Shown piece by piece: positions 1,142 through 50,826 of a DNA stretch of 58,392 bases. Each line of letters opens with the position of its first letter. Within the stretch, counting starts at the first letter, position 1. The position numbers and the translations under genes were made by a program. Origin of the DNA: Patescibacteria group bacterium (GTDB taxonomy: Bacteria; Patescibacteriota; Minisyncoccia; UBA6257; UBA9933); assembly GCA_038065035.1 (NCBI GenBank), contig JBBTRV010000006.1:1-58392 (forward strand). The letters run 5' to 3'. The notes under the pieces are model-generated. The model was not told the origin of the DNA. It saw nothing but the letters and a program-made list of their open reading frames with translations, and searched no databases.

Positions 1142-1426
1142 TTACTTGAATAATCTTTTTAATTTAAGATAAAAATTTTCTCTAATTTGTATTAAGTGGA
1201 CTATAATTATTTTATTTTTGTTATCAAAAGTATAAGCCAAACGATAATCTTTGCCGCCAACTTTAAAATGAAAAGAATAGAGAAAATTCAACGAACCAGA
1301 GAGTTTTTCTCCTAGATAGGGATTAGATTTTAATTTTTGGACTGATTCCACTGAAGCAATTCTTACATTCTTCGGCAATTTTTTAGCTTCTTTCTTAGCA
1401 GACGGAGTAATTAAAATCCGATACAT
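1142..1426 (-). CDS. RelE/ParE-family type II toxin
   Basis: 94 aa, basic. Shows the typical RelE/ParE pattern (MYRILITPSAKKEAKKLPKN ... YRLAYTFD...IIIVHLIQIRENFY). Sits 20 nt downstream of a small ORF. Confidence 0.75.
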   Translation of the reverse strand: MYRILITPSAKKEAKKLPKNVRIASVESVQKLKSNPYLGEKLSGSLNFLYSFHFKVGGKDYRLAYTFDNKNKIIIVHLIQIRENFYLKLKRLFK

Positions 1427-4027: not shown

Positions 4028-4912
4028 ATGGAAATTTTGCTTTTAATAGACGCCCATGCTTTAATCCATCGATGCTTTCACGCGCTACCGCCTTTCAAAA
4101 ACAAAGAAGGTAAGCCGACCGGCGCGCTTTATGGTTTGTCCAGCATTTTAATAAAAATCCTCCATCCGGATAAAAAAAACGGCGCCGACGGCATCAACGG
4201 CCAAATTCCGGAATATATTGTTGCATTTTTTGACCGGCCGGAACCGACTTTTAGAAAACAAATTTACGACGGTTATAAAGCGCAAAGGCCGAAAGCCCCC
4301 GACGAACTGGTTTCTCAAATAATCGCCAGCCACCAGCTGTTTGAAGCTTTTAATATAAAAACTTTTGAAATTCCTGGGTTTGAAGGCGATGACTTAATCG
4401 GCACAGCTGTAGAAAAATTCAAAAACTATCCTGAATTGAAAATCATAATCTTAACCGGCGACTTAGATGCCCTGCAATTAATAGAAAACGAAAGAATAAT
4501 GGTTGAAACAATAAAAAAAGGCATCAGCGAAACAATAATTTATAACGAAGAAGAAGTAAAAAACCGCTTCGGAATTTTGCCAAGCCAAATTGCCGATTAC
4601 AAAGGATTAGTTGGTGATGTTTCAGACAACATCAAAGGCGTGCCGGGAATCGGACCGAAAACAGCGGCCGTTATTTTACAAAAATATAAAACTATTGAAA
4701 ACTTTTTTCAAAAAGGCCGAGAAGAAAAAAATTACGAGAAAATCATTGAATTTAAAGACCAATCAACAACTTCAAAATATTTGGCAGAGATAAGGAAAGA
4801 CGCTCCATTAGACATAAATATTCAAGATTTAAAATACGAAGGATTGCCGAAAGAAAAATTAATCAAACACTTTGAAACCTTAGGTTTTCAAAGCTTGATA
4901 AAAAGATTATGA
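4028..4912 (+). CDS. 5'-3' exonuclease / flap endonuclease (stand-alone Pol I N-terminal domain)
   Basis: LLIDAHALIHRCFHALP, GFEGDDLIG, and the H3TH motif GVPGIGPKTA. Confidence 0.85.
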   Translation: MEILLLIDAHALIHRCFHALPPFKNKEGKPTGALYGLSSILIKILHPDKKNGADGINGQIPEYIVAFFDRPEPTFRKQIYDGYKAQRPKAPDELVSQIIASHQLFEAFNIKTFEIPGFEGDDLIGTAVEKFKNYPELKIIILTGDLDALQLIENERIMVETIKKGISETIIYNEEEVKNRFGILPSQIADYKGLVGDVSDNIKGVPGIGPKTAAVILQKYKTIENFFQKGREEKNYEKIIEFKDQSTTSKYLAEIRKDAPLDINIQDLKYEGLPKEKLIKHFETLGFQSLIKRL

Positions 4913-5338
4913 TGCCGGCATTATAATAATATGCCTTTCTCCGCCCTCGCCAGCGCTTTCAGTTTTAATATCTGGGCGAGATGATAATTCCACGTGCACC
5001 AGCCGGCGCTCATAAGCATTCATCGGCGGTAACGCCACTTTTGTTTTTTCCGCCATGGCCTTTCTGGCCGCTGCCCGGCCAAGTTCCACAATTAAATCTT
5101 CCCGTTTTTTGCGGTAATTATTGACATCGACAACCACGGCTTCGACATTATTTTTTTTAGCAATTAATTTTATAACATGATCAAGATTGCTGACTATTGA
5201 TTGCAGCATGTTTTCAGAAATTGAATCATCGTTTATAAAAATGGAAAATCGGGAATTGCCTTCGTCGTAATTTACGGAAAAATCAGCGAAACTAAACAAC
5301 TCAATCAATTTTTTAATTTTTTCCTGTAATTGGCTCAT
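4907..5338 (-). CDS. jag: Jag/KhpB KH-R3H RNA-binding protein
   Basis: C-terminal R3H motif MNAYERRLVHVELS...TESAGEGGERHIII. Lies directly downstream of yidC with a 4-nt overlap. Confidence 0.8.
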   Translation of the reverse strand: MSQLQEKIKKLIELFSFADFSVNYDEGNSRFSIFINDDSISENMLQSIVSNLDHVIKLIAKKNNVEAVVVDVNNYRKKREDLIVELGRAAARKAMAEKTKVALPPMNAYERRLVHVELSSRPDIKTESAGEGGERHIIIMPAS

Positions 5339-6084
5339 ATTTTGTGATGCAGCTTTTTATCTATTTCAATTAATTTTTCATCGCTCACTTGCAACCGCTT
5401 ATTAATGACTACTTGTTGAATAACCGAAAAAACCGAAGTTGTCAACCAATAAAGCCCAAGAGCAGAAGGCAGATAAGACAAAAACAAAACCGTCATTATC
5501 GGACCCATATAAACCATCTGCTTGCCCATCATTTCCATCGGCGTTAAATCTTTTTTAGGCGCAGTGTTTTTCGGCAAAGACAATCTGCCCTGAAAATACT
5601 GCGCGACTGCCGCCAAAGCGACAATAAAAAAATTTCTACTACTTAAATCAACTAATCCCAAAAAAATATGATTAACGGCTTCTGGCGCGACAACAAAAGA
5701 ATATAAAAATTTCAAAGATTCTTCACTAATGCCTTTCCAAAAAACCTGATAAAGGCCGATAATCACCGGCAATTGGATTAATAACAAAAGAAACGGAGAA
5801 AGCGGGTTCACTTTATGCTCGCGGTAAAGACTAAGCATCGCCGCCAGTTTTTTCTGCTGGTCATCTTTATGCTGAGCCTCAATTTCCTTCATCTTCGGCG
5901 CCAGGCACTGAATAATCGCCTGATCTTTAGCGCCTTTATAAAAAATCGGCAATAATACTACCCTGATTAAAACCGTTAATATAATTATAGCAACGCCTAA
6001 ATCCGCGCCCGGCAGATACTCATACAAAAGAACCAGGGCGTTAAAAATCGGACGGTAAAAAATTTCATTAAATAAAGCAACCAT
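5335..6084 (-). CDS. yidC: membrane protein insertase YidC (short form)
   Basis: 249 aa and multi-TM, with a YidC/Oxa1 pattern (LPIFYKGAKDQA...MKEIEAQHKDDQQK...LPVIIGLY). Conserved rnpA-yidC-jag synteny. Confidence 0.85.
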   Translation of the reverse strand: MVALFNEIFYRPIFNALVLLYEYLPGADLGVAIIILTVLIRVVLLPIFYKGAKDQAIIQCLAPKMKEIEAQHKDDQQKKLAAMLSLYREHKVNPLSPFLLLLIQLPVIIGLYQVFWKGISEESLKFLYSFVVAPEAVNHIFLGLVDLSSRNFFIVALAAVAQYFQGRLSLPKNTAPKKDLTPMEMMGKQMVYMGPIMTVLFLSYLPSALGLYWLTTSVFSVIQQVVINKRLQVSDEKLIEIDKKLHHKI

Positions 6085-6094
6085 AATAAAATAA

Positions 6095-6424
6095 TTAGTA
6101 ATTAGTAATTAGTAATTTGGCAAGTTCTTTTTCTATTTCTTTTTCTTTTAATTCAGCGGTTTTTGGCGAAACGATTACTAAAACATCTTTACCTTTAATT
6201 TCGTGCAATTTTCCCAATCTGATAAAATTAAAAATTGTTCTTTTGATTTTATTGCGCTGAACAGCTGATTTGCTCACCTTCTTGCTGATTACAACCCCAA
6301 ACCGGCTAAATGATAAATTATTATCAGATATCTTAATAATAAAAAAATCGCTTTTGCGAGTTGTTATTTTTTTTCTTTGCTTCAGCCAATTTTGAATTGG
6401 AAGCCGAAATTTTTTAGCTAACAT
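6095..6424 (-). CDS. rnpA: RNase P protein component
   Basis: Internal Met of the 171-aa track ORF gives MLAKKFRLPI...RFGVVISKKVSKSAVQRNKIKR. The upstream part of the track ORF is the shadow of rpmH in another frame. Confidence 0.8.
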   Translation of the reverse strand: MLAKKFRLPIQNWLKQRKKITTRKSDFFIIKISDNNLSFSRFGVVISKKVSKSAVQRNKIKRTIFNFIRLGKLHEIKGKDVLVIVSPKTAELKEKEIEKELAKLLITNY

Positions 6425-6441
6425 TAACTCAAAATAACTAA

Positions 6442-6576
6442 TTAAACAGTTATTTTCTTTCTTCCTTTTCTCCTTCTTCTTTGCAAAACGTTTCTGCCTC
6501 CCGGCGTCCGGCTGCGCTTTAAAAATCCGTGACTTCTTTTCCTTTTTCTCTTTTTCGGCTGGTATGTTAACGACAC
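6442..6576 (-). CDS. rpmH: 50S ribosomal protein L34
   Basis: Not in ORF track (44 aa, GTG start). Hand translation: (M)[43 protein letters not shown], a classic L34 signature, upstream of rnpA. Confidence 0.8.
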
Positions 6577-6713
6577 AATAAAAGCATAGCAAATTTATAG
6601 AGAAAAACAAGGATGTTGCGCTTATCCACAGCCTTAGTATTGACTAAAATTATAAAGTATTGTATATTAAGATTAGATATTTAAAATAAATTAAAATGAA
6701 AGGGGTGAACGAA

Positions 6714-10283: not shown

Positions 10284-11396
10284 TCAACTTTTTATTGGCA
10301 TTAAAATATAAAAATAAGAAGTGTCTTCTGGTGATTTTATAATTGCCGGCTTATTTGAATTACTAAAACCAAAGAAAATATTTTCAGAAGTTATATTTTT
10401 AATTCCATCTAATAAAAAGCGCCAATTAAAAATAACTTCTATTGGCTCTCCTTTTATTTTTGCGGAGATTAAATACTTATTCACCCCAAAAACATTATTA
10501 CAAGAAGATATTTCTATGTTTTTAAGATTTTCTTTTATGGTTATTTTTATTTCATTAAGCCGGTCTGTGAAGATTCCAACAAGTTTAACGGCGTTGATTA
10601 ATTCATCTTTATTTAAAACAACTTCTGTTTCGTGTGTTTTTGGAATAATTTGCTGATATTCCGGAAATTCACCATTAATTAATCTTGATATTATTTCTGT
10701 ATTTTCGTTTTTAAAAACAATTTGGGTTTGGTCAAAAAATATATTGATTTTTCCACTTTCATTTAATTGTGTTTCTTTAATAACCTCATTAATTGTTTTT
10801 AATGGAATAATAATCTTAAAAGCGTTATCAATATTTGATTTAAAATAATTATTCAAAATAGTCTCTTCAGAAAGCCTGAATGTATCAGTTGAAACAAATT
10901 TTATTACTGAATTTTGATAATCAAATAAAACCCCACTAAGTTCAGGTTTACTATCTTTAGTTGTTGAACTAATAATATTAATAAAAATATCTTTTAATAT
11001 TGAGTTTTGTATTTCAATATAATAATTATTGTTTTTTATTTTTGGAATAATTGGAAAATCTTCTTTTTTAATTCCATTTATTTCAGCTTCATAATTATCA
11101 GTTTTTAATAATATTTTATTATTATTTATTTCAATATTAATCCTTTCATTTTGTAAATTATTAATAATTGAATTAAAAATTCCAAAAGGAATAGTTATTC
11201 CTCCGTTTTCTATTATTTTTCCAGAAATAAAACTAATTACCGCTAATTCAAGATTTGTCGCTGAAAGTTTTATTCTATTATCAAATGATTCAATTAAAAA
11301 ATTTTTTAAAATTGGTAAATCGGTATCATCTTTTGTTATTTGCTCAATAACTCTAAGCCCATCTTTTAAATTTTTTTTTAAAACAACTAATTTCAT
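10284..11396 (-). CDS. dnaN: DNA polymerase III beta sliding clamp
   Basis: 370 aa directly downstream of dnaA, with a three-domain clamp-like pattern (MKLVVLKKNLKDGL...). Confidence 0.85.
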   Translation of the reverse strand: MKLVVLKKNLKDGLRVIEQITKDDTDLPILKNFLIESFDNRIKLSATNLELAVISFISGKIIENGGITIPFGIFNSIINNLQNERINIEINNNKILLKTDNYEAEINGIKKEDFPIIPKIKNNNYYIEIQNSILKDIFINIISSTTKDSKPELSGVLFDYQNSVIKFVSTDTFRLSEETILNNYFKSNIDNAFKIIIPLKTINEVIKETQLNESGKINIFFDQTQIVFKNENTEIISRLINGEFPEYQQIIPKTHETEVVLNKDELINAVKLVGIFTDRLNEIKITIKENLKNIEISSCNNVFGVNKYLISAKIKGEPIEVIFNWRFLLDGIKNITSENIFFGFSNSNKPAIIKSPEDTSYFYILMPIKS

Positions 11397-11530
11397 AATA
11401 TTAATATATATTATTTGTTATTGTAGTAGTGGTTGTGAATATGTTTATTATTTAAAAATAAACAATAAACATATGTATTTATTTTTAAATAACCTGTGGA
11501 AATATAGTTAATTATTATAGGATATTTTTT

Positions 11531-12898
11531 TTAAGCATTTTCATTGATTATTTCTTTTATTAATATTATTTTTTGGTTTAAGTTATTATTTTTATTAATT
11601 TCATTAGCTATTTTTTCATATGAATGGATTGCTGTTGTGTGATCTCTTTTTCCTATTTTATCCCCAATATCCGGGTAAGACATCCCCAATATTTCCCTAA
11701 GTAAAAATATTGTTATTTGTCTTGGTTCAATTAATCTTTTTCTTCTTGAATGGCTTATAATATCATCTGGTATCATTTCAAAAAAATCAGCCACTGTTTT
11801 TATTAATTGACCAGGGGTTATTTTTTTATCAACCTGGTTTATTGTGTTGCTTATTATTTCTTCAATTATTTTCGGCTGAAGATTAATATTCTTCGTTTCT
11901 TTATAAAAAACAATTTTATTTAAAATTCCTTCAATTTCTCTAATATTTCTTTGCACTTTTAAAGCTATAACTTGGCAGATATTATCTGGTAAATCAGCGC
12001 GCATTTGAACCAACTTCGTTTTTATAATAGCTAAGCGAGTTTCAAAATCTGGATAAGTAATATCTGCCGCCATTCCCCCCTCAAAGCGCGAGCGTAATCT
12101 TTCATGAAGTGTTGGAATAGCCGCCGGTGGCCTGTCGGAAGATATTATTATTTGTTTACTATTTTCATGTAGGGCATTAAATGTATGGAAAAATTCCATT
12201 TCACTTGCCTCTTTTCCCCCAATAAATTGAATATCGTCAATAATTAAAACATCTATATTGCGATATTTGTTTTTCATATCTTCCATTCTTTTGTTTCGGA
12301 TTCCGGCAACTACTTCATGAACGAATTTTTCACAATGAACATATTTTACCTTAATTTTATCTTTATAATTATTTTTTATTTCATTGCCAATTGCTTGGAT
12401 AAGGTGTGTTTTTCCAAGCCCCGTTCCGCCATAAATAAAAAATGGATTATATTTAACGCCAACATTTTTTATTACAGCAAGACTAGCGGCGTAAGCCAAT
12501 TCATTTGAAGAGCCGACGATAAAAGAATTAAGGGTGTAGCGCGGATGAAGTCCGGTTTCTTGGTCTATTTTAAATTCTGGAAATGTTAATTGCCTTTCCG
12601 CGGGTTGAGATTGTTGAGAAATATTATTTTGGTTTGCGGCTATTATTTTTGGGCCAACAACTATGTATTCAATTTTTTTTATTGAATTATCGTTATTTTT
12701 AAGAATTTCAAAAATAATTTTATGATATTTATTTTCCACCCATTCTTTGGCAAAATTGTTCGATAAACCGATTATTACTTCACCGGTATCTTTTTTCTCG
12801 CAAAGTTGGCTGTTTTTTAACCAGGTAAGAAAATTTGGGCGGGAAATTTGCAGTTCTATTTCCGATAAAACTGTTTGCCAAAGCTGGTTGGTGTTCAT
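11531..12898 (-). CDS. dnaA: chromosomal replication initiator DnaA
   Basis: Walker A GGTGLGKTHL, box VII RSRF, and a C-terminal HTH (DHTTAIHSYEKI). Confidence 0.95.
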   Translation of the reverse strand: MNTNQLWQTVLSEIELQISRPNFLTWLKNSQLCEKKDTGEVIIGLSNNFAKEWVENKYHKIIFEILKNNDNSIKKIEYIVVGPKIIAANQNNISQQSQPAERQLTFPEFKIDQETGLHPRYTLNSFIVGSSNELAYAASLAVIKNVGVKYNPFFIYGGTGLGKTHLIQAIGNEIKNNYKDKIKVKYVHCEKFVHEVVAGIRNKRMEDMKNKYRNIDVLIIDDIQFIGGKEASEMEFFHTFNALHENSKQIIISSDRPPAAIPTLHERLRSRFEGGMAADITYPDFETRLAIIKTKLVQMRADLPDNICQVIALKVQRNIREIEGILNKIVFYKETKNINLQPKIIEEIISNTINQVDKKITPGQLIKTVADFFEMIPDDIISHSRRKRLIEPRQITIFLLREILGMSYPDIGDKIGKRDHTTAIHSYEKIANEINKNNNLNQKIILIKEIINENA

Positions 12899-29650: not shown

Positions 29651-29704
29651 AGCCCGCTAAGAAGTTTTTACTTTTAAGCGGGCTGTTTTATTTTAAAAAT
29701 AAAT
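29651..29704 (+). terminator. terminator of the SPFH operon
   Basis: agcccgct ... agcgggct stem followed by gttttatttt. Confidence 0.5.
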
Positions 29705-30110
29705 TGCTAATCGCCTGCATAAAATCTTCGAAGTCGCTTAAATCATTTTTTGCGTATTCCAATATATTTTTGTCGTTGATTTCCCAATAGCGATGTATTA
29801 GTTTATTTCTGAATTTTACCATATTTCTTAATTTCAGCGATAAATCTGGTTGCAAAGCTTTTTCATTTTCCAATACTTCAAAACATTCACCAAAAGCGGA
29901 AACCGCTTTATGAAATTTTTTTGCGGCTAAATGAACGTAAACGCCGCCTACTGCCTCAATTGCTTGCAGGAGATTATATTTTAAAGCGGCTAAATCTATT
30001 TTATCTGACAAAATTTTTTCATCTCCAAAAGATATTATTTTTTTTATTTCTTCCAATGCCGCGTCAATTTCCGCGAACCTTTGTTGAATTTTTTTCTTGT
30101 CTATATTCAT
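29688..30110 (-). CDS. hepT: HepT (DUF86, HEPN) toxin
   Basis: R-x4-H motif RNKLIHRYWEI. 140 aa, downstream of a nucleotidyltransferase. Confidence 0.8.
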   Translation of the reverse strand: MNIDKKKIQQRFAEIDAALEEIKKIISFGDEKILSDKIDLAALKYNLLQAIEAVGGVYVHLAAKKFHKAVSAFGECFEVLENEKALQPDLSLKLRNMVKFRNKLIHRYWEINDKNILEYAKNDLSDFEDFMQAISNLFLK

Positions 30111-30118
30111 AATATTTT

Positions 30119-30559
30119 TTAGCGAGTAATAAGTTCCTTGAATGATTGATAAGATATATATTCATTAGCTAAAGCGTCAAGTGAAGAATATTCAATAATA
30201 GGGTCAAGAATGTTGTCATCTTTAACAAACAATAATTTGCCTCGGGAAAATACATTATTTTGAAACGATACTGGCGCGAAATTTAAAACTTTAATGTCTA
30301 TTTTATCAAACGAAAAATTTATAAATTTGCCCAATTCCACTGAAAGATTAGTCTCATAGTTGAAAACTTTTTCTTTTTCAATAGCTGGCTTAACTAAAAA
30401 AACCGCCACGTCGATATCGCGAAAAGAGATGTTTTCCGGCTCAAGAAAAGAGCCGAAAATATAGGAAAAGGAAATCTCTTCGCGTTTTTCCAGAAATTGG
30501 CGGATTTTAGTCGTTGTTTCTTCTTTTTCTTGTTTTGTCATCTGATAGAATTCTTTCAT
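30119..30559 (-). CDS. mntA: MntA minimal nucleotidyltransferase antitoxin
   Basis: IFGSFLEPE...RDIDVAVF (GS...DxD). Start is uncertain (Met codons at 30595, 30559 and 30541). Confidence 0.75.
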   Translation of the reverse strand: MKEFYQMTKQEKEETTTKIRQFLEKREEISFSYIFGSFLEPENISFRDIDVAVFLVKPAIEKEKVFNYETNLSVELGKFINFSFDKIDIKVLNFAPVSFQNNVFSRGKLLFVKDDNILDPIIEYSSLDALANEYISYQSFKELITR

Positions 30560-30730
30560 TCTGGTTATTATATTGAAAATTTGATAAAAAAGCAATTAAA
30601 AACAAAAATCCCGCAGTAGAGCTTTCGTTCACTGCGGGACTTCTCCCCGACTTCTTATTTTAAGAATGTCGGGATTTTTTATTTGGTATTTCCTATTATT
30701 AATTATATTTTATATATTATTTGGTTATAA

Positions 30731-31090
30731 TTAAAAAACACTTTTTACAATTGCCGGTATACTTAACGCGATTAAAGCCACAACGATTGCTACTATTGCA
30801 TATATTATTTGACTTTTTGCTTTTCCAACTTTTTCAGGATCACCTTGAGCTGTTAAATAGGTAAAAGCGGCCGCAAGAATAAATATGCCAGCAAGAATAA
30901 AGAATATGGTATAAATCCATTTTATAACCCCTGTTATTTTATTTAAGAGTTCAGTCATAGTGCCTACTTGTACTTCTCCTTTAAAATCAACATCGCTTGA
31001 GCCCTGTGAAATTGCTGAAACCATAACGGGCAACAATAATAATGAAACAAGATTTATAATTACAAACGTTTTTATTTTTAGTGAAGCCAT
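30731..31090 (-). CDS. T4SS-pilin-like (TrbC/VirB2-like) small membrane protein, paralog 1
   Basis: Signal peptide, then two TM helices around the loop LTAQGDPEKVGKAKSQI. Confidence 0.6.
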   Translation of the reverse strand: MASLKIKTFVIINLVSLLLLPVMVSAISQGSSDVDFKGEVQVGTMTELLNKITGVIKWIYTIFFILAGIFILAAAFTYLTAQGDPEKVGKAKSQIIYAIVAIVVALIALSIPAIVKSVF

Positions 31091-31167
31091 ATTTTATGTA
31101 TATTTTTATTAAAATATATTCGACCTTTTATTTTATTAATTTTATATTAAAAAAATAAAAATTCAAT

Positions 31168-31533
31168 TCATTCTCCACTTAGAACACTTTTTATAATAGT
31201 AGTAAAGCTGAATGCTAAAAGGGCAATTACGATAGCAATAATAGCATAGAAGATTTGTTTATTAATTTTTTGAATTGTTTCTGGATTACCTTGAGCGGTA
31301 AGATAACTATAAGCTACTATAAGTATAATTAAACCTGCTATTATAAAAAATATTGTATACATCCATTTTGCAATATTATTTAAAATTTTTAATACATCGG
31401 CAATGCTGCATATCGCCGTTTGCGAACGGTCGCAATCTGCGGCAAAAGCCAATGGCGTTGCTAAGGCAGTAAGTAGCAAGTAGAAAGCAATAAATAGAAC
31501 AAAAATATCCTTTTTATTTAAAAATTTAATCAT
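31168..31533 (-). CDS. T4SS-pilin-like small membrane protein, paralog 2
   Basis: Start moved to the internal Met MIKFLNKK (ATGA overlap with the upstream gene). Loop LTAQGNPETIQKINKQI. Confidence 0.6.
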   Translation of the reverse strand: MIKFLNKKDIFVLFIAFYLLLTALATPLAFAADCDRSQTAICSIADVLKILNNIAKWMYTIFFIIAGLIILIVAYSYLTAQGNPETIQKINKQIFYAIIAIVIALLAFSFTTIIKSVLSGE

Positions 31534-31865
31534 TTTACCAGATTTGTTCCCAACACTTCTCCAATTATATAAATAATCCCCCAAGAGCACAAGATAATGG
31601 CGTAGCCGACCGCGGCCCATTGGATGGTTTTTCTTCCGCCTTGCACTTTTTCCGGGCTGTCGCCGGCGGTTAAAATCAAAAATCCGCCGTATAATACCAT
31701 AATAACGACAATCGGCGCGCCGATAGTAATAAAATAGCCGATGATTCTTTTTAAAAGTTCAAAAATACTTGTGGGGCCGAGCGGGTTTGTAAAACCGCCG
31801 CCGATTGTTTCGCCAACGCCCGCCGCTAAAGCTTTATTTAAAATTTTTAAAAAAAGATTTTGCAT
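31530..31865 (-). CDS. T4SS-pilin-like small membrane protein, paralog 3
   Basis: NPLGPTSIFELL... and LTAGDSPEKVQGGRKTI. Confidence 0.6.
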   Translation of the reverse strand: MQNLFLKILNKALAAGVGETIGGGFTNPLGPTSIFELLKRIIGYFITIGAPIVVIMVLYGGFLILTAGDSPEKVQGGRKTIQWAAVGYAIILCSWGIIYIIGEVLGTNLVK

Positions 31866-31887
31866 TTACTGTAAAATTAAAAATAAA

Positions 31888-32301
31888 TTATTGGCAATTA
31901 ATTTTCACAGCTGGATTCCACCAATTTCCAGTTAGATTATTTCCGGCTATTACTTGCAATATTGTATCAATTAAAAGCCACGCCAGCAAGGCGATTAAAA
32001 GCCCGATGACGGCCGAAGTGATGATTTTTCTGCCGTCGCTTACTCTTTCCGGCTTGTCGCCGGCGGTTAAAATCACAAACCCGCCGTAAATAATGAAAAT
32101 TACCACCAACGGTACGGCAATGTAGTAAAGAGCAAAATCAAGCACTTTTTCAGCAAGCGTTAACAGGTCGCAGAATTCGCAACTTGCTTTGCTGGTACCT
32201 GGTCCGCAAGGAACAAGTGCGGCATAAGTGATTGAAGTAGTAAGTAGTAAGCAGAAAGTAAAAAGTATGATAATTTTTAATTTTGAATTGTAATTTTGCA
32301 T
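31888..32301 (-). CDS. T4SS-pilin-like small membrane protein, paralog 4
   Basis: Signal peptide, Cys pairs, and LTAGDKPERVSDGRKII. Confidence 0.6.
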   Translation of the reverse strand: MQNYNSKLKIIILFTFCLLLTTSITYAALVPCGPGTSKASCEFCDLLTLAEKVLDFALYYIAVPLVVIFIIYGGFVILTAGDKPERVSDGRKIITSAVIGLLIALLAWLLIDTILQVIAGNNLTGNWWNPAVKINCQ

Positions 32302-43812: not shown

Positions 43813-43886
43813 GCGTCCATAGCTCAGCTGGTTAGAGCACGGCTCTTATAAAGCCGGGGTCGATGGTTCGAATCCATCTGGACGCA
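43813..43886 (+). tRNA. tRNA-Ile (anticodon TAT)
   Basis: gcgtcca ta gctcagctggttagagc a cggct ctTATaa agccg gggtc gatggttcgaatccatc tggacgc a. Confidence 0.8.
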
Positions 43887-43900
43887 CATTTCTATTTTCC

Positions 43901-45205: not shown

Positions 45206-45282
45206 CAGATTTAATAAAAATCTGTATTATTTGCTTCAGTAAATAAATTTTTTAAAATTTAAAAAGAAAGGAGGTGATTGAA

Positions 45283-45672
45283 ATGAAAAATATCATCTTA
45301 GGTTTATTTTTGGTATTGATTTTTGCCACTGTCGCGGTGGCGGAAATTACAGGACCAATGCCTTGTCCCGGACAAGAACAACATGCAGTAAAAGTTGTTC
45401 GTGGACCTGCGGGACCGCGCGGATCGCAGGGCGCGCGAGGGCCAATCGGGCCGGCCGGACCACAAGGAGAAATTCCTTGGTGGCCACTGGCATTGGTGGC
45501 TATTGGCGGAGGTTTGCTAGGGGGAGTAATTGTCGCGGCTTTGAATAGGCCACAACAACCACCTCCGGCACAGCCAGTTCCTCAACCAGTTCAGCCGGTA
45601 AACATTTTTAATAATGTTTTACCGCCGGTAGCTGGACAACAGCCACCCCAACAGTCAAATCAGCCACAGTAA
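45283..45672 (+). CDS. small collagen-like-repeat membrane protein
   Basis: SD aaggagg upstream. Signal peptide, then 7 G-X-Y triplets (GPAGPRGSQGARGPIGPAGPQGE), a Gly-rich TM helix and a Pro/Gln-rich tail. Confidence 0.6.
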   Translation: MKNIILGLFLVLIFATVAVAEITGPMPCPGQEQHAVKVVRGPAGPRGSQGARGPIGPAGPQGEIPWWPLALVAIGGGLLGGVIVAALNRPQQPPPAQPVPQPVQPVNIFNNVLPPVAGQQPPQQSNQPQ

Positions 45673-45694
45673 TGTGGTTGATGACTTATTTTTT

Positions 45695-45736
45695 AAGGAG
45701 AGTGTTTGTCATTAGACAACCTCTCCTTTTCTTTTT
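45695..45736 (+). terminator. terminator of the collagen-like gene
   Basis: aaggagag ... ctctcctt followed by ttcttttt. Confidence 0.55.
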
Positions 45737-45769
45737 GGCAAACATTTTTTATTTAACACTTATTGACAA

Positions 45770-46520
45770 AAGCGTGAAACATTGTGAAACATTTTTAACA
45801 TTGAAAATATGAGACAAAACGTTTCACGTCAAACACTTTGTCTCATATTTTCGATGTCATATTTTAAAAAAGTCTTTTTAAAATGTTTCACATTTTTTTG
45901 GCAAACATTTTGCGAACATTTTTATATCTGTCACTAGTCTGATTAAACAATGTTTCACGTTTTACACTGTATATTATCTTATTAACCAATGTTTGCCGTT
46001 TTACATCAATTATAGAAAATGTGTACGATGTTTCACGTTTTACACTTGTTTTTTTAAAATCATAGTGTTTCACGTTTTACATAGGTATTTTGTTCTTTTT
46101 ATAAAATCAGCTATAAATATAAAAATTCTATTTTTTGAAATTCAAAAACAGTATTATAAGCTATATTAATTTATTATATTGAAAATTATCCTTGTACCAA
46201 TGTTTCACGTTTTACACTATGTATTATCTTATTAACCAATGTTTGCCGTTTTACATAAATTATGGAAAATGTGTACGATGTTTCACGTTTTACATCGGAT
46301 TAATTTTTAGATATGATGTTTCACGATTTACACTAGTTATCTCTTATAAAAATGTTTCACACTAATACGTGAAACATTTTTATAGAAACTACATCAAAAA
46401 TATGAGACAAAGTGTTCGACGTGAAACACTTTATCTCATATTTTGAGCATTAAATTTAATAATTGATTATTGTGGATATGTTGCTATCTTTTATATGTGT
46501 ACGATGTTTCACGTTTTACA
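45770..46520 (+). repeat. iteron array: about 9 direct copies of ATGTTTCACGTTTTACA plus inverted half-sites and hairpins
   Basis: Copies start at 45950, 45989, 46028, 46065, 46200, 46239, 46278, 46316 and 46504. A 97-bp unit (45948-46044) is duplicated at 46198-46294. No credible ORF. Confidence 0.8.
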
Positions 46521-46683
46521 TTGGATACGCTAAATATCCTGTTAAAAAATGTTTTCCACATGTTCTTCACATCGGCTTTATTTTACGTATTAAAACTTCC
46601 TCATTAAATAAGGATTTTTATGGCTTAATTTTTAAATTATAAAATATGGATTTATTTATGATTTTTTAGTTATAATAATAACA

Positions 46684-47076
46684 ATGACTAATAAGCAGGA
46701 CTTAGGACAACTTGGTGAAAATATCGCCTGTAGATATCTTGTGGAAAAGAGATATAAAATAGTAGAAAGAAACTTCAGGAAACAGTGGGGAGAGATAGAT
46801 ATTATTGCCAAAGCGCCGGATAAGACATTAGTGTTTGTTGAAGTAAAAACTATTAGGCAATATAATAATGATTTTGTCAATAATGATAACGTCATTTCGG
46901 CAGAAGACCAATTAACCAAGGCAAAATTGCAAAAATTGCAGAGAACCGCTTCTTTGTATGTCGGCTATTATCCGAATCTGGTAGACGATACCAAAGGCTG
47001 GCAAATTGATTTACTTGCCTTGACAATAAAAGAAAATAATTATGTAATTAAACATTATAAGAATATTATATTATGA
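46684..47076 (+). CDS. yraN: YraN-family (UPF0102) endonuclease
   Basis: GENIACRYLVEKRYKIVERNFR...GEIDIIA...LVFVEVKT. Confidence 0.75.
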   Translation: MTNKQDLGQLGENIACRYLVEKRYKIVERNFRKQWGEIDIIAKAPDKTLVFVEVKTIRQYNNDFVNNDNVISAEDQLTKAKLQKLQRTASLYVGYYPNLVDDTKGWQIDLLALTIKENNYVIKHYKNIIL

Positions 47077-47897
47077 TTATTGACGGCAAAAAAATTGCGC
47101 AGGTAATTATTGAGAAATTAAAATCACAACCAAAGCCGGAAAAAATTTTTGCGGCTATTTTGGTTGGCGAAAATCCGCAATCGGAAAGTTTTTTGAAGCA
47201 AAAAGAAAAAGTCGCCAAAGAATTAGGAATTGATTTTCGGATTTATAAATTTTCTGAAGAATTGAAAAATGATGATTTGCGCGAAGAAGTAAGAAAAATC
47301 GCCTTATTAAAAAAAGTTGGCGGAGTGATTGTGCAGTTGCCGTTGCCGGAACATATAAATAAGCACTATATTTTAAATGTCATTCCTCGCGAAAAAGATG
47401 TTGATGTTTTGGGCGAGCGGGCGTTAGGAGCGTTTTATACCGGCCGTAATCCAATATTACCGCCAGCAGTCGGAGTCGTAGATGAAATACTACAAACTAC
47501 AAACTACAAACTACAAACTACTGCAGTCGCGGTAGTTGGCAGAGGATTTTTAGTTGGCAGACCAATCGCTGTTTGGCTGATGGATAAAGTTAAAGAACTT
47601 GGCGTTTTCGGCAGAGAAGGAAATTTATCAGAATTGAAAAATTATGATTTAGTGATTACCGGCGTTGGCAAAGCTGGCTTAATAAAACCGGAAATGTTAA
47701 AGTCCGGAGCGGGCGTTATTGATTTCGGCTATTCAATAGATGAAAACGGCAAAATTCACGGAGATTTTGAAACTAATTTACCAATTAACCAATTAACTAA
47801 TCAACTAAATTTTTACACTCCCACCCCCGCTGGCACTGGTCCGATATTGGTTGCGAAGTTGTTTGAAAACTTTTTTAAATTAATTTCTTTCTTGTAA
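47073..47897 (+). CDS. folD: bifunctional methylene-THF dehydrogenase/cyclohydrolase FolD
   Basis: ILVGENPQSESFLKQK, VQLPLP, VVGRGFLVGRP, PTPAGTGP. Confidence 0.9.
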   Translation: MIIDGKKIAQVIIEKLKSQPKPEKIFAAILVGENPQSESFLKQKEKVAKELGIDFRIYKFSEELKNDDLREEVRKIALLKKVGGVIVQLPLPEHINKHYILNVIPREKDVDVLGERALGAFYTGRNPILPPAVGVVDEILQTTNYKLQTTAVAVVGRGFLVGRPIAVWLMDKVKELGVFGREGNLSELKNYDLVITGVGKAGLIKPEMLKSGAGVIDFGYSIDENGKIHGDFETNLPINQLTNQLNFYTPTPAGTGPILVAKLFENFFKLISFL

Positions 47898-49451: not shown

Positions 49452-50375
49452 TTACAGATTAAGCAAGGAGTAAATTTTATTAATTAAATTATCAATAATT
49501 TCTTTTTTTGTCGATTCAATATTCAATCTTATTGCCGGCTCGGTGTTTGATGGACGTAAATTAAACCACCATTCATTAGATTCAATTGTTAATCCATCAA
49601 GGTAAAAAATTTTTAATTGGTTAGAAAATTGATTTTTAAAAATTTCTTCGATTTCTTTTAAGATATTTTTCATTTCGCGATTTTCAGCTGGCAATTCAAT
49701 ATTAATTTCTCCACTCCGATAATATTGCGGCAGTAAATCATTAAAGTTAGCTATTGAATAAGGCAGTTTTGAAATAGCGTTAATAACTTCAATTGCGGTT
49801 AAAATTCCGGAATCAATATAAGAAATTTCTTTTTTATCGCTGATTGGAAAATAATAATGGCCGGATTTTTCCGCTCCAAAATCAGCTTTAATTTCTTGCA
49901 TTAGTTTTTTAATAAAATAATGGCCGGCCCTAGAAGTCGTAAGTCTTAAGTCTTTAGTCGCTAGTCTTTTAACAAGCCAGCCAGTTCTTGAGTCAATTAC
50001 GATTTTTTTTGGCTTTAGATGCCAGATTAATAATTTACTAATAACATCGGGATCAATAAAGCGGCCAAGATTATCAATAAAAAATACCCGATCGCCGTCA
50101 GCGTCAAAAATAACTCCTAAATCAACTTTTTGTTTTTTTACTTCTTGTTGAAGTTGGTTTAAAGCGTTTGAAGCCAATGGATTCGGCCTATGAGCCGGAA
50201 AATCACCATTGGGCGTCTGATTAATTAGTTGATAGTCAATTAGTGAATTGGTTTTAAATAATTCTTTTAAAATCAATCCGGTCGTACCGTTAGAACAATC
50301 AAAAACAATTTTTAATTTTTTGTCAGAATGCAATCTTTTTTTAAGAAAGTCCACATAAATTTTTATATAATTCAT
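49452..50375 (-). CDS. phosphomannomutase/phosphoglucomutase, C-terminal fragment (domains II-IV)
   Basis: Metal loop FDADGDR, sugar loop GAEKSGHYYF, and C-terminal RPSNTEP. Separated from the domain-I fragment by stops in all three frames. Confidence 0.7.
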   Translation of the reverse strand: MNYIKIYVDFLKKRLHSDKKLKIVFDCSNGTTGLILKELFKTNSLIDYQLINQTPNGDFPAHRPNPLASNALNQLQQEVKKQKVDLGVIFDADGDRVFFIDNLGRFIDPDVISKLLIWHLKPKKIVIDSRTGWLVKRLATKDLRLTTSRAGHYFIKKLMQEIKADFGAEKSGHYYFPISDKKEISYIDSGILTAIEVINAISKLPYSIANFNDLLPQYYRSGEINIELPAENREMKNILKEIEEIFKNQFSNQLKIFYLDGLTIESNEWWFNLRPSNTEPAIRLNIESTKKEIIDNLINKIYSLLNL

Positions 50376-50403
50376 AAAATTTAAAACCAAATTAACTAAT
50401 TAA

Positions 50404-50826
50404 CTAATTTACCAACTTACTAACTTCTTCTCCACTTATTGGCATAGCATTTTTGCCGACGATTTTTAAACCATTATATTCTTTTGGGTTGTGGCTGGCC
50501 GTAATCATTATTCCTAAATCAGCATTAAAATAATTAGCTAAAAAATAAAACATCGGCGTAGTTGATAATCCTATTTTAATAATTGCTAATTGCTGATTGC
50601 TAATTGTTAATTGTTCAATTATTGCGTGATAAAGAGTAGGCGAGCTTAGCCGGGTGTCATGAGCAACTGCAATTTTTAATTTTTCATTTTTAATTTTGAA
50701 TTTTGAAATAAACAAAGAAATAATTACACAAACTATTTCTTCGTTTATTTCAGCGGGGTATTTGCCGCGGATGTCGTAAGCGCGAAAAATTTTATGATTT
50801 ATATTTATTTTATTTGTAGTTTCCAT
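50404..50826 (-). CDS. phosphomannomutase/phosphoglucomutase, N-terminal fragment (domain I)
   Basis: FRAYDIRG and the phosphoserine loop TASHNP. Ends ...GEEVSKLVN* inside a taattag-type micro-repeat. Confidence 0.75.
   Translation of the reverse strand: METTNKININHKIFRAYDIRGKYPAEINEEIVCVIISLFISKFKIKNEKLKIAVAHDTRLSSPTLYHAIIEQLTISNQQLAIIKIGLSTTPMFYFLANYFNADLGIMITASHNPKEYNGLKIVGKNAMPISGEEVSKLVN

Follow-up and report, generated by a model that had tools for sequence, protein, structure and literature searches.

The DNA analysed here, a stretch of 58,392 nucleotides hereafter called the window and used for all coordinates, is a piece of a small bacterial chromosome of Patescibacteria type (CPR, for candidate phyla radiation). 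It carries, between the stop of an open reading frame (ORF) at 45274-45672 and the start of yraN at 46684, a non-coding segment of about 1.0 kb filled with short repeats, and this repeat array is the subject of the present work. A preliminary description of the sequence had already noticed this ~1 kb of non-coding DNA. The ORF on the 5' side of the array is small, encodes a collagen-like protein and has its own terminator at 45659-45692. On the other side, yraN (46684-47076, + strand) encodes a UPF0102 protein of the PD-(D/E)xK nuclease type (PF02021, E = 1e-21) in which the catalytic residues D39, E53 and K55 are invariant, and its last bases overlap the beginning of folD (47073-47897). The remaining neighbours are genes for an ATP-grasp protein, tRNAs, PspC and an M15 peptidase. 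Pfam scans of the 55 window proteins found no rep, par or regulator gene near the array, in agreement with the earlier remark that no rep or par gene was adjacent. Relatives of the locus all came from Patescibacteria metagenome-assembled genomes (MAGs) or groundwater metagenome contigs, and an identical YraN was recorded only in one MAG and one Logan assembly.

The most conspicuous component of the array is a 17-bp motif, ATGTTTCACGTTTTACA, which on searching the full 58-kb window was found in nine copies, all on the + strand, forming two duplicated clusters and one outlying copy. Exact copies start at 45950, 46028, 46200, 46278 and 46504, those with one mismatch at 46065 and 46316, and those with two mismatches at 45989 and 46239. 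When up to three mismatches were tolerated, 10 matches were obtained against 0.27 expected from shuffles. Cluster A (45950-46081, + strand) contains four 17-mers, at 45950, 45989, 46028 and 46065, and cluster B (46200-46332, + strand) another four, at 46200, 46239, 46278 and 46316, the first three being a 96% copy of cluster A. Indeed, a 97-bp unit at 45948-46044 recurs at 46198-46294 with 96% identity. The ninth 17-mer (46504-46520, + strand) is exact and lies 164 bp upstream of the yraN start. Successive spacings are 39, 39, 37, 135, 39, 39, 38 and 188 bp, the 37-39 bp within clusters being without helical phasing. Between the clusters lies an AT-rich spacer (46082-46197), whose AT content, 83.6%, ranks among the highest 1.1% of 116-bp windows. 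All these elements had been reported in the preliminary description, and its nine positions, its 37-39-bp spacing, its duplication at about 95% and its very AT-rich 116-bp spacer were each recovered here. The clusters are best explained by tandem duplication, of a 38-39-bp unit first and of the 97-bp three-unit block thereafter, and it is because the array grew in this manner that all nine 17-mers share one orientation (two-sided binomial p = 0.004).

Shorter versions of the motif are found on both sides of the clusters. The 8-mer TGTTTCAC occurs in 13 exact copies in the window (9 on the + and 4 on the - strand) against 1.19 expected, and all 13 are confined to 45774-46512, that is, within 0.75 kb. 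It had been counted about 16 times in both orientations; both orientations are indeed used, and the exact count is 13. This confinement led us to reject a dispersed DNA-uptake or repetitive extragenic palindromic (REP)-type repeat, and the concern that the motif might be scattered as a generic repeat was not borne out in the window. Likewise, 22 of the 31 GTTTYAC heptamers fall in the 0.9-kb array, leaving 9 in the other 57.5 kb (0.16 per kb). At the 5' end of the array, a degenerate heptamer, GTTTGCC (- strand, at 45737), sits within a repeated TTTGGCAAACATTTTT motif at 45734-45749 (- strand), of which further copies occur at 45897-45912 and 45908-45923. Two GTGAAAC heptamers follow as a direct repeat of 10-bp period (GTGAAACATT twice, 45773-45792, - strand); these inverted half-sites had been placed at 45773 and 45783, one base away from their true starts at 45774 and 45784. 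The palindrome P1 (45798-45857, 60 bp) has a parS-like centre, CGTTTCACGTCAAACA, at 45820-45835, with two mismatches to parS, and a hairpin z-score of -8.4. A split inverted pair at 45880-45911 consists of TGTTTCAC (45884-45891), an 8-bp gap and GGCAAACA (45900-45907). Downstream of cluster B, the perfect palindrome TATAAAAATGTTTCAC-N8-GTGAAACATTTTTATA (46345-46384, z-score -9.2) is made of gapped inverted heptamers; it had been described as spanning 46348-46381, and we confirmed its perfection and 8-bp gap and measured the arms at 46345-46360 and 46369-46384. Palindrome P2 (46391-46450) is an 85% copy of P1, and its parS-like centre, TGTTCGACGTGAAACA, at 46413-46428 also bears two mismatches. 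Last, three DnaA-box-like 9-mers, ATATCCACA (46471-46479, - strand), TTTTCCACA (46552-46560, + strand) and TTCTTCACA (46563-46571, + strand), lie on the side of the array closest to yraN and may or may not belong to it; they may reflect an input of DnaA on yraN or on the array.

A misassembled tandem repeat was a possibility raised from the outset. Short reads assembled independently in two data sets (L116 and L117) match the window at 100% identity, the contigs breaking within the repeats (at 46497 and 46227), and a contig from a related species (L118), whose YraN is 85% identical, spans the homologous array with the same two-cluster layout. The repeat array is therefore not an assembly artefact. 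Comparing the window with L118 showed that the sites are invariant while the spacers diverge, and that whole 38-bp repeat units have been gained or lost. P1 is identical in both, the cluster A sites are kept while the sequences between them drift, and the gapped palindrome at 46345-46384 and the ninth 17-mer are conserved. The AT-rich spacer has retained its length and AT-richness and not its sequence. The three DnaA-box-like 9-mers are also kept (at about 1300-1400 of L118), the first being a perfect TTATCCACA. Two differences concern the heptamers themselves: the first copy of the pair at 45773-45792 reads GTAAAAC in L118 instead of GTGAAAC, and the parS-like centre of P2 is replaced at the same place by an asymmetric 17-mer. 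Invariant sites amid drifting spacers are the footprint of selection on protein-binding sites, and the alignments show that inverted and direct arrangements of the heptamer are interchangeable.

Read as sequence, the unit of the array is the 7-bp half-site of parS, the heptamer GTTTCAC. The 8-mer TGTTTCAC is the left arm of parS, TGTTTCACGTGAAACA, and the 17-mer consists of two heptamers placed head to tail, GTTTCAC-GTTTTAC, which differ at one base. Aligned with TGTTTCACGTGAAACA, the 17-mer matches at 13 of 16 positions, and two array sites reach 14 of 16. The palindromes of the array are inverted heptamers, either adjacent, as in the parS-like P1 and P2, or 8 bp apart. One may also read the 17-mer as a parS site with one degenerate inverted half, at the cost of three mismatches versus one for the direct-repeat reading, and we kept this as secondary. 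The direct-repeat reading was preferred for its single mismatch and because it also explains why Chloroflexota and Poribacteria have extended (GTTTYAC)n runs. In Pseudomonas aeruginosa, ParB binds lone half-parS heptamers independently of spreading (PMC10419367, PMC5961200), and the specificity positions of the half-site are guanine 1 and adenine 6 (PMC7383237). GTTTTAC, taken as an inverted half-site, retains both.

Two clusters of direct 17-bp repeats around an 84% AT tract also reproduce the layout of iterons, and the array might accordingly be a second chromosomal origin of replication or the remnant of an integrated plasmid or phage, in which initiator monomers would sit on the direct repeats and the AT-rich spacer would serve as unwinding element. 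The three DnaA-box-like 9-mers close by, one of them a perfect box in L118, fit such a reading, and inverted repeats reusing half an iteron recall the operator/iteron duality of RepE/RepA plasmids. However, no rep gene exists within 10 kb on either side, and no gene for a Rep protein, helicase loader or primase was found. The window has dnaN and dnaA at 10284-12898 (- strand), with canonical DnaA boxes upstream of dnaA, and its cumulative GC skew has its sole minimum at ~12 kb, at dnaA, and rises straight through 46 kb, where skew is positive (0.05-0.13) on both sides. The array thus lies 33 kb from dnaA/dnaN and from the DnaA-box cluster, the distance given earlier, on the rising arm of the skew and with no turn of its own. 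A blastn search against 72,556 plasmids and 50,697 phages gave no match, and the 17-mer was present on 14 viral contigs as single copies, without arrays, that look like chance occurrences. The flanks are housekeeping genes in conserved chromosomal synteny, the 37-39-bp spacing lacks helical phasing, and the regions upstream of CPR yraN genes show no enrichment in DnaA boxes (see below). We consider an iteron-type origin very improbable.

A periodicity of 37-39 bp further raised the question of a repeat-derived RNA, that is, an array of tandem interspaced guide RNAs (TIGR), a CRISPR-like guide array or another non-coding RNA. The period is near the 36-nt TIGR unit, TIGR-Tas systems occur in CPR bacteria (PMC12045711), and promoter-like TTTACA-N17-TAYGAT matches are present in each unit. 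By definition, a CRISPR array goes with Cas effectors and has a single repeat with unique spacers, and a TIGR array goes with an adjacent Nop-domain Tas effector and has two alternating short repeats and unique spacers of ~9 nt (PMC12045711). Here, effector genes, whether Nop/Tas, Cas or other, are lacking in the vicinity, and each unit has one 17-bp repeat rather than two alternating 8-12-nt repeats with 9-nt spacers. The would-be spacers are themselves duplicated (96% identity) and conserved in L118, and at par operons elsewhere the 17-mer is a single or paired site. Rfam returned nothing at gathering thresholds and, at E <= 1, only sub-threshold miRNA hairpin models caused by the palindromes, and shuffled sequence folds just as well as the iteron cluster does (z-score -1.0). 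The repeat-rich non-coding RNA suggested at first thus found no support in the Rfam, folding and effector-gene searches, and among the explanations considered it is the one to which we give the least credence.

The preliminary description had advised looking for the 17-mer in other genomes. We scanned a collection of 185,579 species-representative genomes (596 Gb) for exact matches. Such matches defined 115 loci, where about 69 are expected by chance under uniform composition (596 Gb x 2 / 4^17). Within 3 kb, parA or parB was present at 34 of the 115 loci, and any of parA, parB, rsmG, mnmG, mnmE, yidC, rnpA or jag at 40. Another 19 were Patescibacteria arrays directly upstream of yraN, and the remaining 56, which had neither context, are in line with what chance predicts (~69). 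The 40 par-context loci span at least six phyla: Actinomycetota, Chloroflexota, Deinococcota, Acidobacteriota, Gemmatimonadota and Myxococcota. High-GC Actinomycetota have the 17-mer immediately next to the rsmG start codon; Meiothermus has one copy upstream of rsmG and one inside it; Pyrinomonadaceae have two copies, inverted, in the interval from mnmG to parA; a copy sits between two perfect DnaA boxes, beside parA, in Limnocylindria; and in several Chloroflexota it comes after parB. To count second copies at these 40 loci, the copy that had recruited each locus was removed. GTTTCAC was then followed by GTTTTAC 23 times (20 loci) and by GTGAAAC 8 times (3 loci). Because second copies in par loci mostly have the same asymmetric form, the asymmetric 17-mer is, on these counts, a recurrent class of par-locus site and not a stray variant.

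The same loci yielded several observations on the arrangement of the heptamer. In Chloroflexota, Poribacteria and Verrucomicrobiota (L004, L015, L029, L043, L051, L075 and L079), GTTTYAC heptamers also stand in tandem, 3-5 in a row at a period of 7 bp; these runs often finish in the 17-mer, and some form large inverted pairs. In Pyrinomonadaceae (L005, L012, L017, L021 and L065), inverted 17-mers and a 19-bp spacer make up a palindrome of ~53 bp, which is conserved in five species and perfect in some. Seven Chloroflexota loci (L020, L025, L033, L049, L053, L059 and L080) have the 17-mer just upstream of a conserved methyltransferase-like gene, which in L020 comes directly after parB.

We then turned to the Patescibacteria. 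At all 19 genome loci, heptamers cluster within ~900 bp upstream of yraN, which is the only gene that these loci have in common, and the orientation of the 17-mer relative to yraN varies from one CPR locus to another. The arrays often mix heptamers with parS sites at 0 or 1 mismatch: five perfect parS sites were found in L067, two in L115 and one in L095. Among the homologous Patescibacteria arrays, L133 and L136 have eight sites each at no more than one mismatch. Eighty metagenomic loci were also collected by means of the YraN protein alone (7-sequence alignment), hence free of motif ascertainment. Heptamer density in these was 4.7 per kb over the last 250 bp ahead of the yraN start and 1.4-2.3 per kb further out to -1 kb, for a background of ~0.1. 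Palindromes of the form TGTTT-N6-AAACA, perfect parS among them, reached 1-1.6 per kb upstream of yraN and were almost nowhere else. Their commonest centre was the canonical CACGTG (47 sites in 11 loci), and lineage-specific centres, such as GCCGGC or ACCGGC, were also seen, which recalls the divergence of parS and the Noc-binding site (NBS) in the ParB/Noc family (PMC7383237). The yraN ATG of several loci has a parS site or heptamer 5-40 bp away. DnaA boxes were not enriched upstream of yraN across CPR, and an apparent enrichment inside yraN was dismissed as a coding coincidence (VEK codons).

Two further features of these upstream regions were noticed. In many Patescibacteria (including L126, L129, L140, L146, L154-L157, L161, L169, L188 and L195), a gene of the LAGLIDADG_1 family, ~150-170 amino acids in length, is divergent from yraN, and the site-rich region is the intergenic space shared by the two. 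In another CPR sublineage (L119, L132, L134, L139, L141, L145, L147, L148, L150, L152, L156 and L162), the palindrome GTGTAA-AAA-TTACAC is present one to three times upstream of yraN, sometimes beside a GTGAAAC heptamer.

Position on the chromosome is a further point of resemblance to parS. In relatives, yraN and its array lie between FtsH and a TsaE-RuvB-PilB-RuvC-PBP1 block. The genes of this block flank dnaA in the window, and because genes adjoining the array in relatives are those that flank dnaA here, the array is origin-proximal across this Patescibacteria lineage.

On these grounds, we propose that the array is an origin-proximal centromere cluster of the ParB/parS type, which probably also controls yraN, and we put the probability of this reading at about 0.6. 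Two main readings had been suggested at first, a theta origin of plasmid or phage type and a centromere for partition. The second is favoured by the parS half-sites, by the 17-mer at parAB operons and by the perfect parS sites of CPR arrays, while the first is at odds with the lack of a rep gene, of a skew turn and of any plasmid or phage match.

The main competitor is an array of operator or decoy sites for a GTTTCAC-binding protein other than ParB, mainly controlling yraN, for example within a competence regulon, the likeness to parS being then due to shared or convergent specificity. It draws on yraN being the sole conserved neighbour of the array across Patescibacteria, on a site density that is highest in the 250 bp before the start codon, with a site abutting the ATG in several loci, and on the failure to find parB near arrays in the CPR loci searched. 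Furthermore, other CPR lineages have different palindromes at this place (GTGTAA-AAA-TTACAC, TGTTTGCCGGCAAACA), as if regulator and site were co-evolving. Yet at least six other phyla have the very same 17-mer linked to parAB operons, with no yraN nearby, Patescibacteria arrays hold clustered 16-bp parS sites, up to eight of them, no candidate regulator gene is conserved beside the array, and in the window the likely -10 element and the nearest heptamer are over 100 bp apart. An operator function had been put forward in the preliminary description, which mentioned neither parS nor a relationship with yraN; it agrees with the data and is probably part of the picture. As the sole explanation, we judge it rather unlikely.

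Several observations speak against a centromere. First, the window has no perfect 16-bp parS, TGTTNCACGTGAAACA, its best sites (45820-45835 and 46413-46428) having two mismatches. Second, the rnpA-yidC-jag(R3H) block at 4907-6610 (- strand), that is, at 4.9-6.6 kb, lacks rsmG-parA-parB after it; what comes next is a 5'-3' exonuclease gene on the opposite strand. Third, tblastn searches and hidden Markov model (HMM) searches, the latter with E-value cut-offs of 1 and 0.1, recovered neither parA nor parB, whether in the window, at the 19 CPR genome loci or across 505 kb surrounding metagenomic yraN genes, the related CPR loci amounting to ~0.65 Mb. Fourth, a strict linkage to yraN over deep divergence is unexpected for a pure centromere and is accommodated at least as well by an operator. 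Last, we found no published demonstration of a ParB dimer binding head-to-tail heptamers. When an Acidobacteria ParB was used as query in a large protein database, nothing beyond its own close relatives came out, an outcome that weighs neither way. Clusters of perfect parS sites without ParB would nonetheless be hard to explain. We thus infer from its sites that the array-binding protein belongs to the ParB family, and it is because its identity is deduced in this way that our confidence stands where it does and that the operator explanation was retained.

How such a locus might work can be sketched as follows. Each helix-turn-helix domain of ParB would bind one heptamer. Inverted heptamer pairs would nucleate CTP-dependent ParB clamps, leading to spreading and to the recruitment of ParA or SMC, whereas head-to-tail pairs would bind ParB without offering the dyad geometry for clamp closure and would act as static, high-density anchors that hold and concentrate ParB at the locus. 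ParB bound at the array might also set the expression of yraN. ParB is known to repress promoters beside parS (PMC5521831), and ParB/parS modulates competence in S. pneumoniae (PMC4488948). YraN was described as a nuclease that works together with ComM and resolves the D-loops of natural transformation (bioRxiv 10.1101/2024.02.06.579203), and Patescibacteria are enriched in competence genes (PMC11665869).

More tentatively, and we would not count on it, the head-to-tail dimer ATGTTTCACGTTTTACA may be a distinct and ancient class of segregation site, conserved at the level of bases from Actinomycetota to Patescibacteria, with a function unlike that of palindromic parS, either as a non-loading ParB anchor or roadblock or as the target of another heptamer-binding protein. 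In Patescibacteria, with the ancestral rsmG-parAB position empty, the expanded arrays would then be a centromere physically and functionally coupled to yraN. If true, this site class would link chromosome segregation to natural competence in obligate symbionts.

Four observations were made elsewhere in the window. A tRNA-Ile with anticodon UAU is encoded at 43813-43887; this anticodon is an unusual route to reading AUA and usually accompanies the absence of TilS. Phosphoglucomutase is split into two adjoining ORFs on the - strand, for domain I (50404-50826) and domains II-IV (49452-50390); the split was also called in assembly L116, PGM1 and PGM2 match as separate pieces in many relatives, and it looks like a real split gene and not a sequencing error. 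A HepT/MNT-type toxin-antitoxin pair and a ParE-like toxin gene were identified at 29688-30595 and 1142-1426 (- strand). Three tandem paralogues coding for small proteins resembling type IV secretion system (T4SS) pilins (TrbC/VirB2-like) occupy 30731-32301 (- strand).

While parS and half-parS are already known, three features appear undescribed: a head-to-tail half-site dimer conserved base for base at the par operons of numerous phyla, the tandem arrays into which it has expanded, and a conserved parS cluster upstream of Patescibacteria yraN, away from par genes. Both 14-mers of the motif were absent from 8.3 million full texts, a search that would miss sequences given only in figures, and no study of chromosome segregation in Patescibacteria was found in the searchable literature. 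The locus provides a concrete candidate centromere, recognisable by sequence in many lineages including Saccharibacteria, some of which are cultivable. If ParB binds the head-to-tail site, this bears on how ParB discriminates loading sites from sites of mere binding; if it does not, another widespread factor acts at par loci. That the array is constantly linked to yraN hints at a coupling of segregation and competence in organisms heavily dependent on DNA uptake.

Among known systems, iteron origins (F ori2/RepE, pPS10 RepA) share with the array direct repeats, inverted repeats reusing half a repeat and an adjoining AT-rich tract. Unlike them, the array has no initiator gene, skew switch or helical phasing, and its motif belongs to the parS family. 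Plasmid centromeres of type Ia come closer in layout. The sopC locus of F is made of tandem 43-bp units with one SopB site each, and P1 parS arranges asymmetric box A heptamers (ATTTCAC) on either side of a centre that is bent and AT-rich; the array likewise combines tandem units, near-GTTTCAC heptamers in mixed orientations and two arms around an AT-rich centre. In contrast to these, it is chromosomal, has no adjacent parAB/sopAB and no plasmid similarity, and no box B-like motif was identified in it. In the half-parS sites of P. aeruginosa, a single 7-bp parS arm is a sufficient unit for ParB binding (PMC5961200, PMC10419367), as proposed here for the array. The P. aeruginosa half-sites are isolated and spread genome-wide, whereas the array heptamers are paired head to tail within one 0.9-kb locus, and the exact 17-mer of the array is conserved across phyla. 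From chromosomal parS/ParB (Spo0J) centromeres, finally, the array differs in that most sites of the window are head-to-tail heptamer pairs and not dyads, and in having nine sites in tandem 38-39-bp units that are tied to yraN without an adjacent parAB. It resembles them in its GTTTCAC half-site, its origin-proximal position and its several clustered sites, in the presence of array-type sites at par operons elsewhere, and in the perfect TGTTTCACGTGAAACA held by related CPR arrays.

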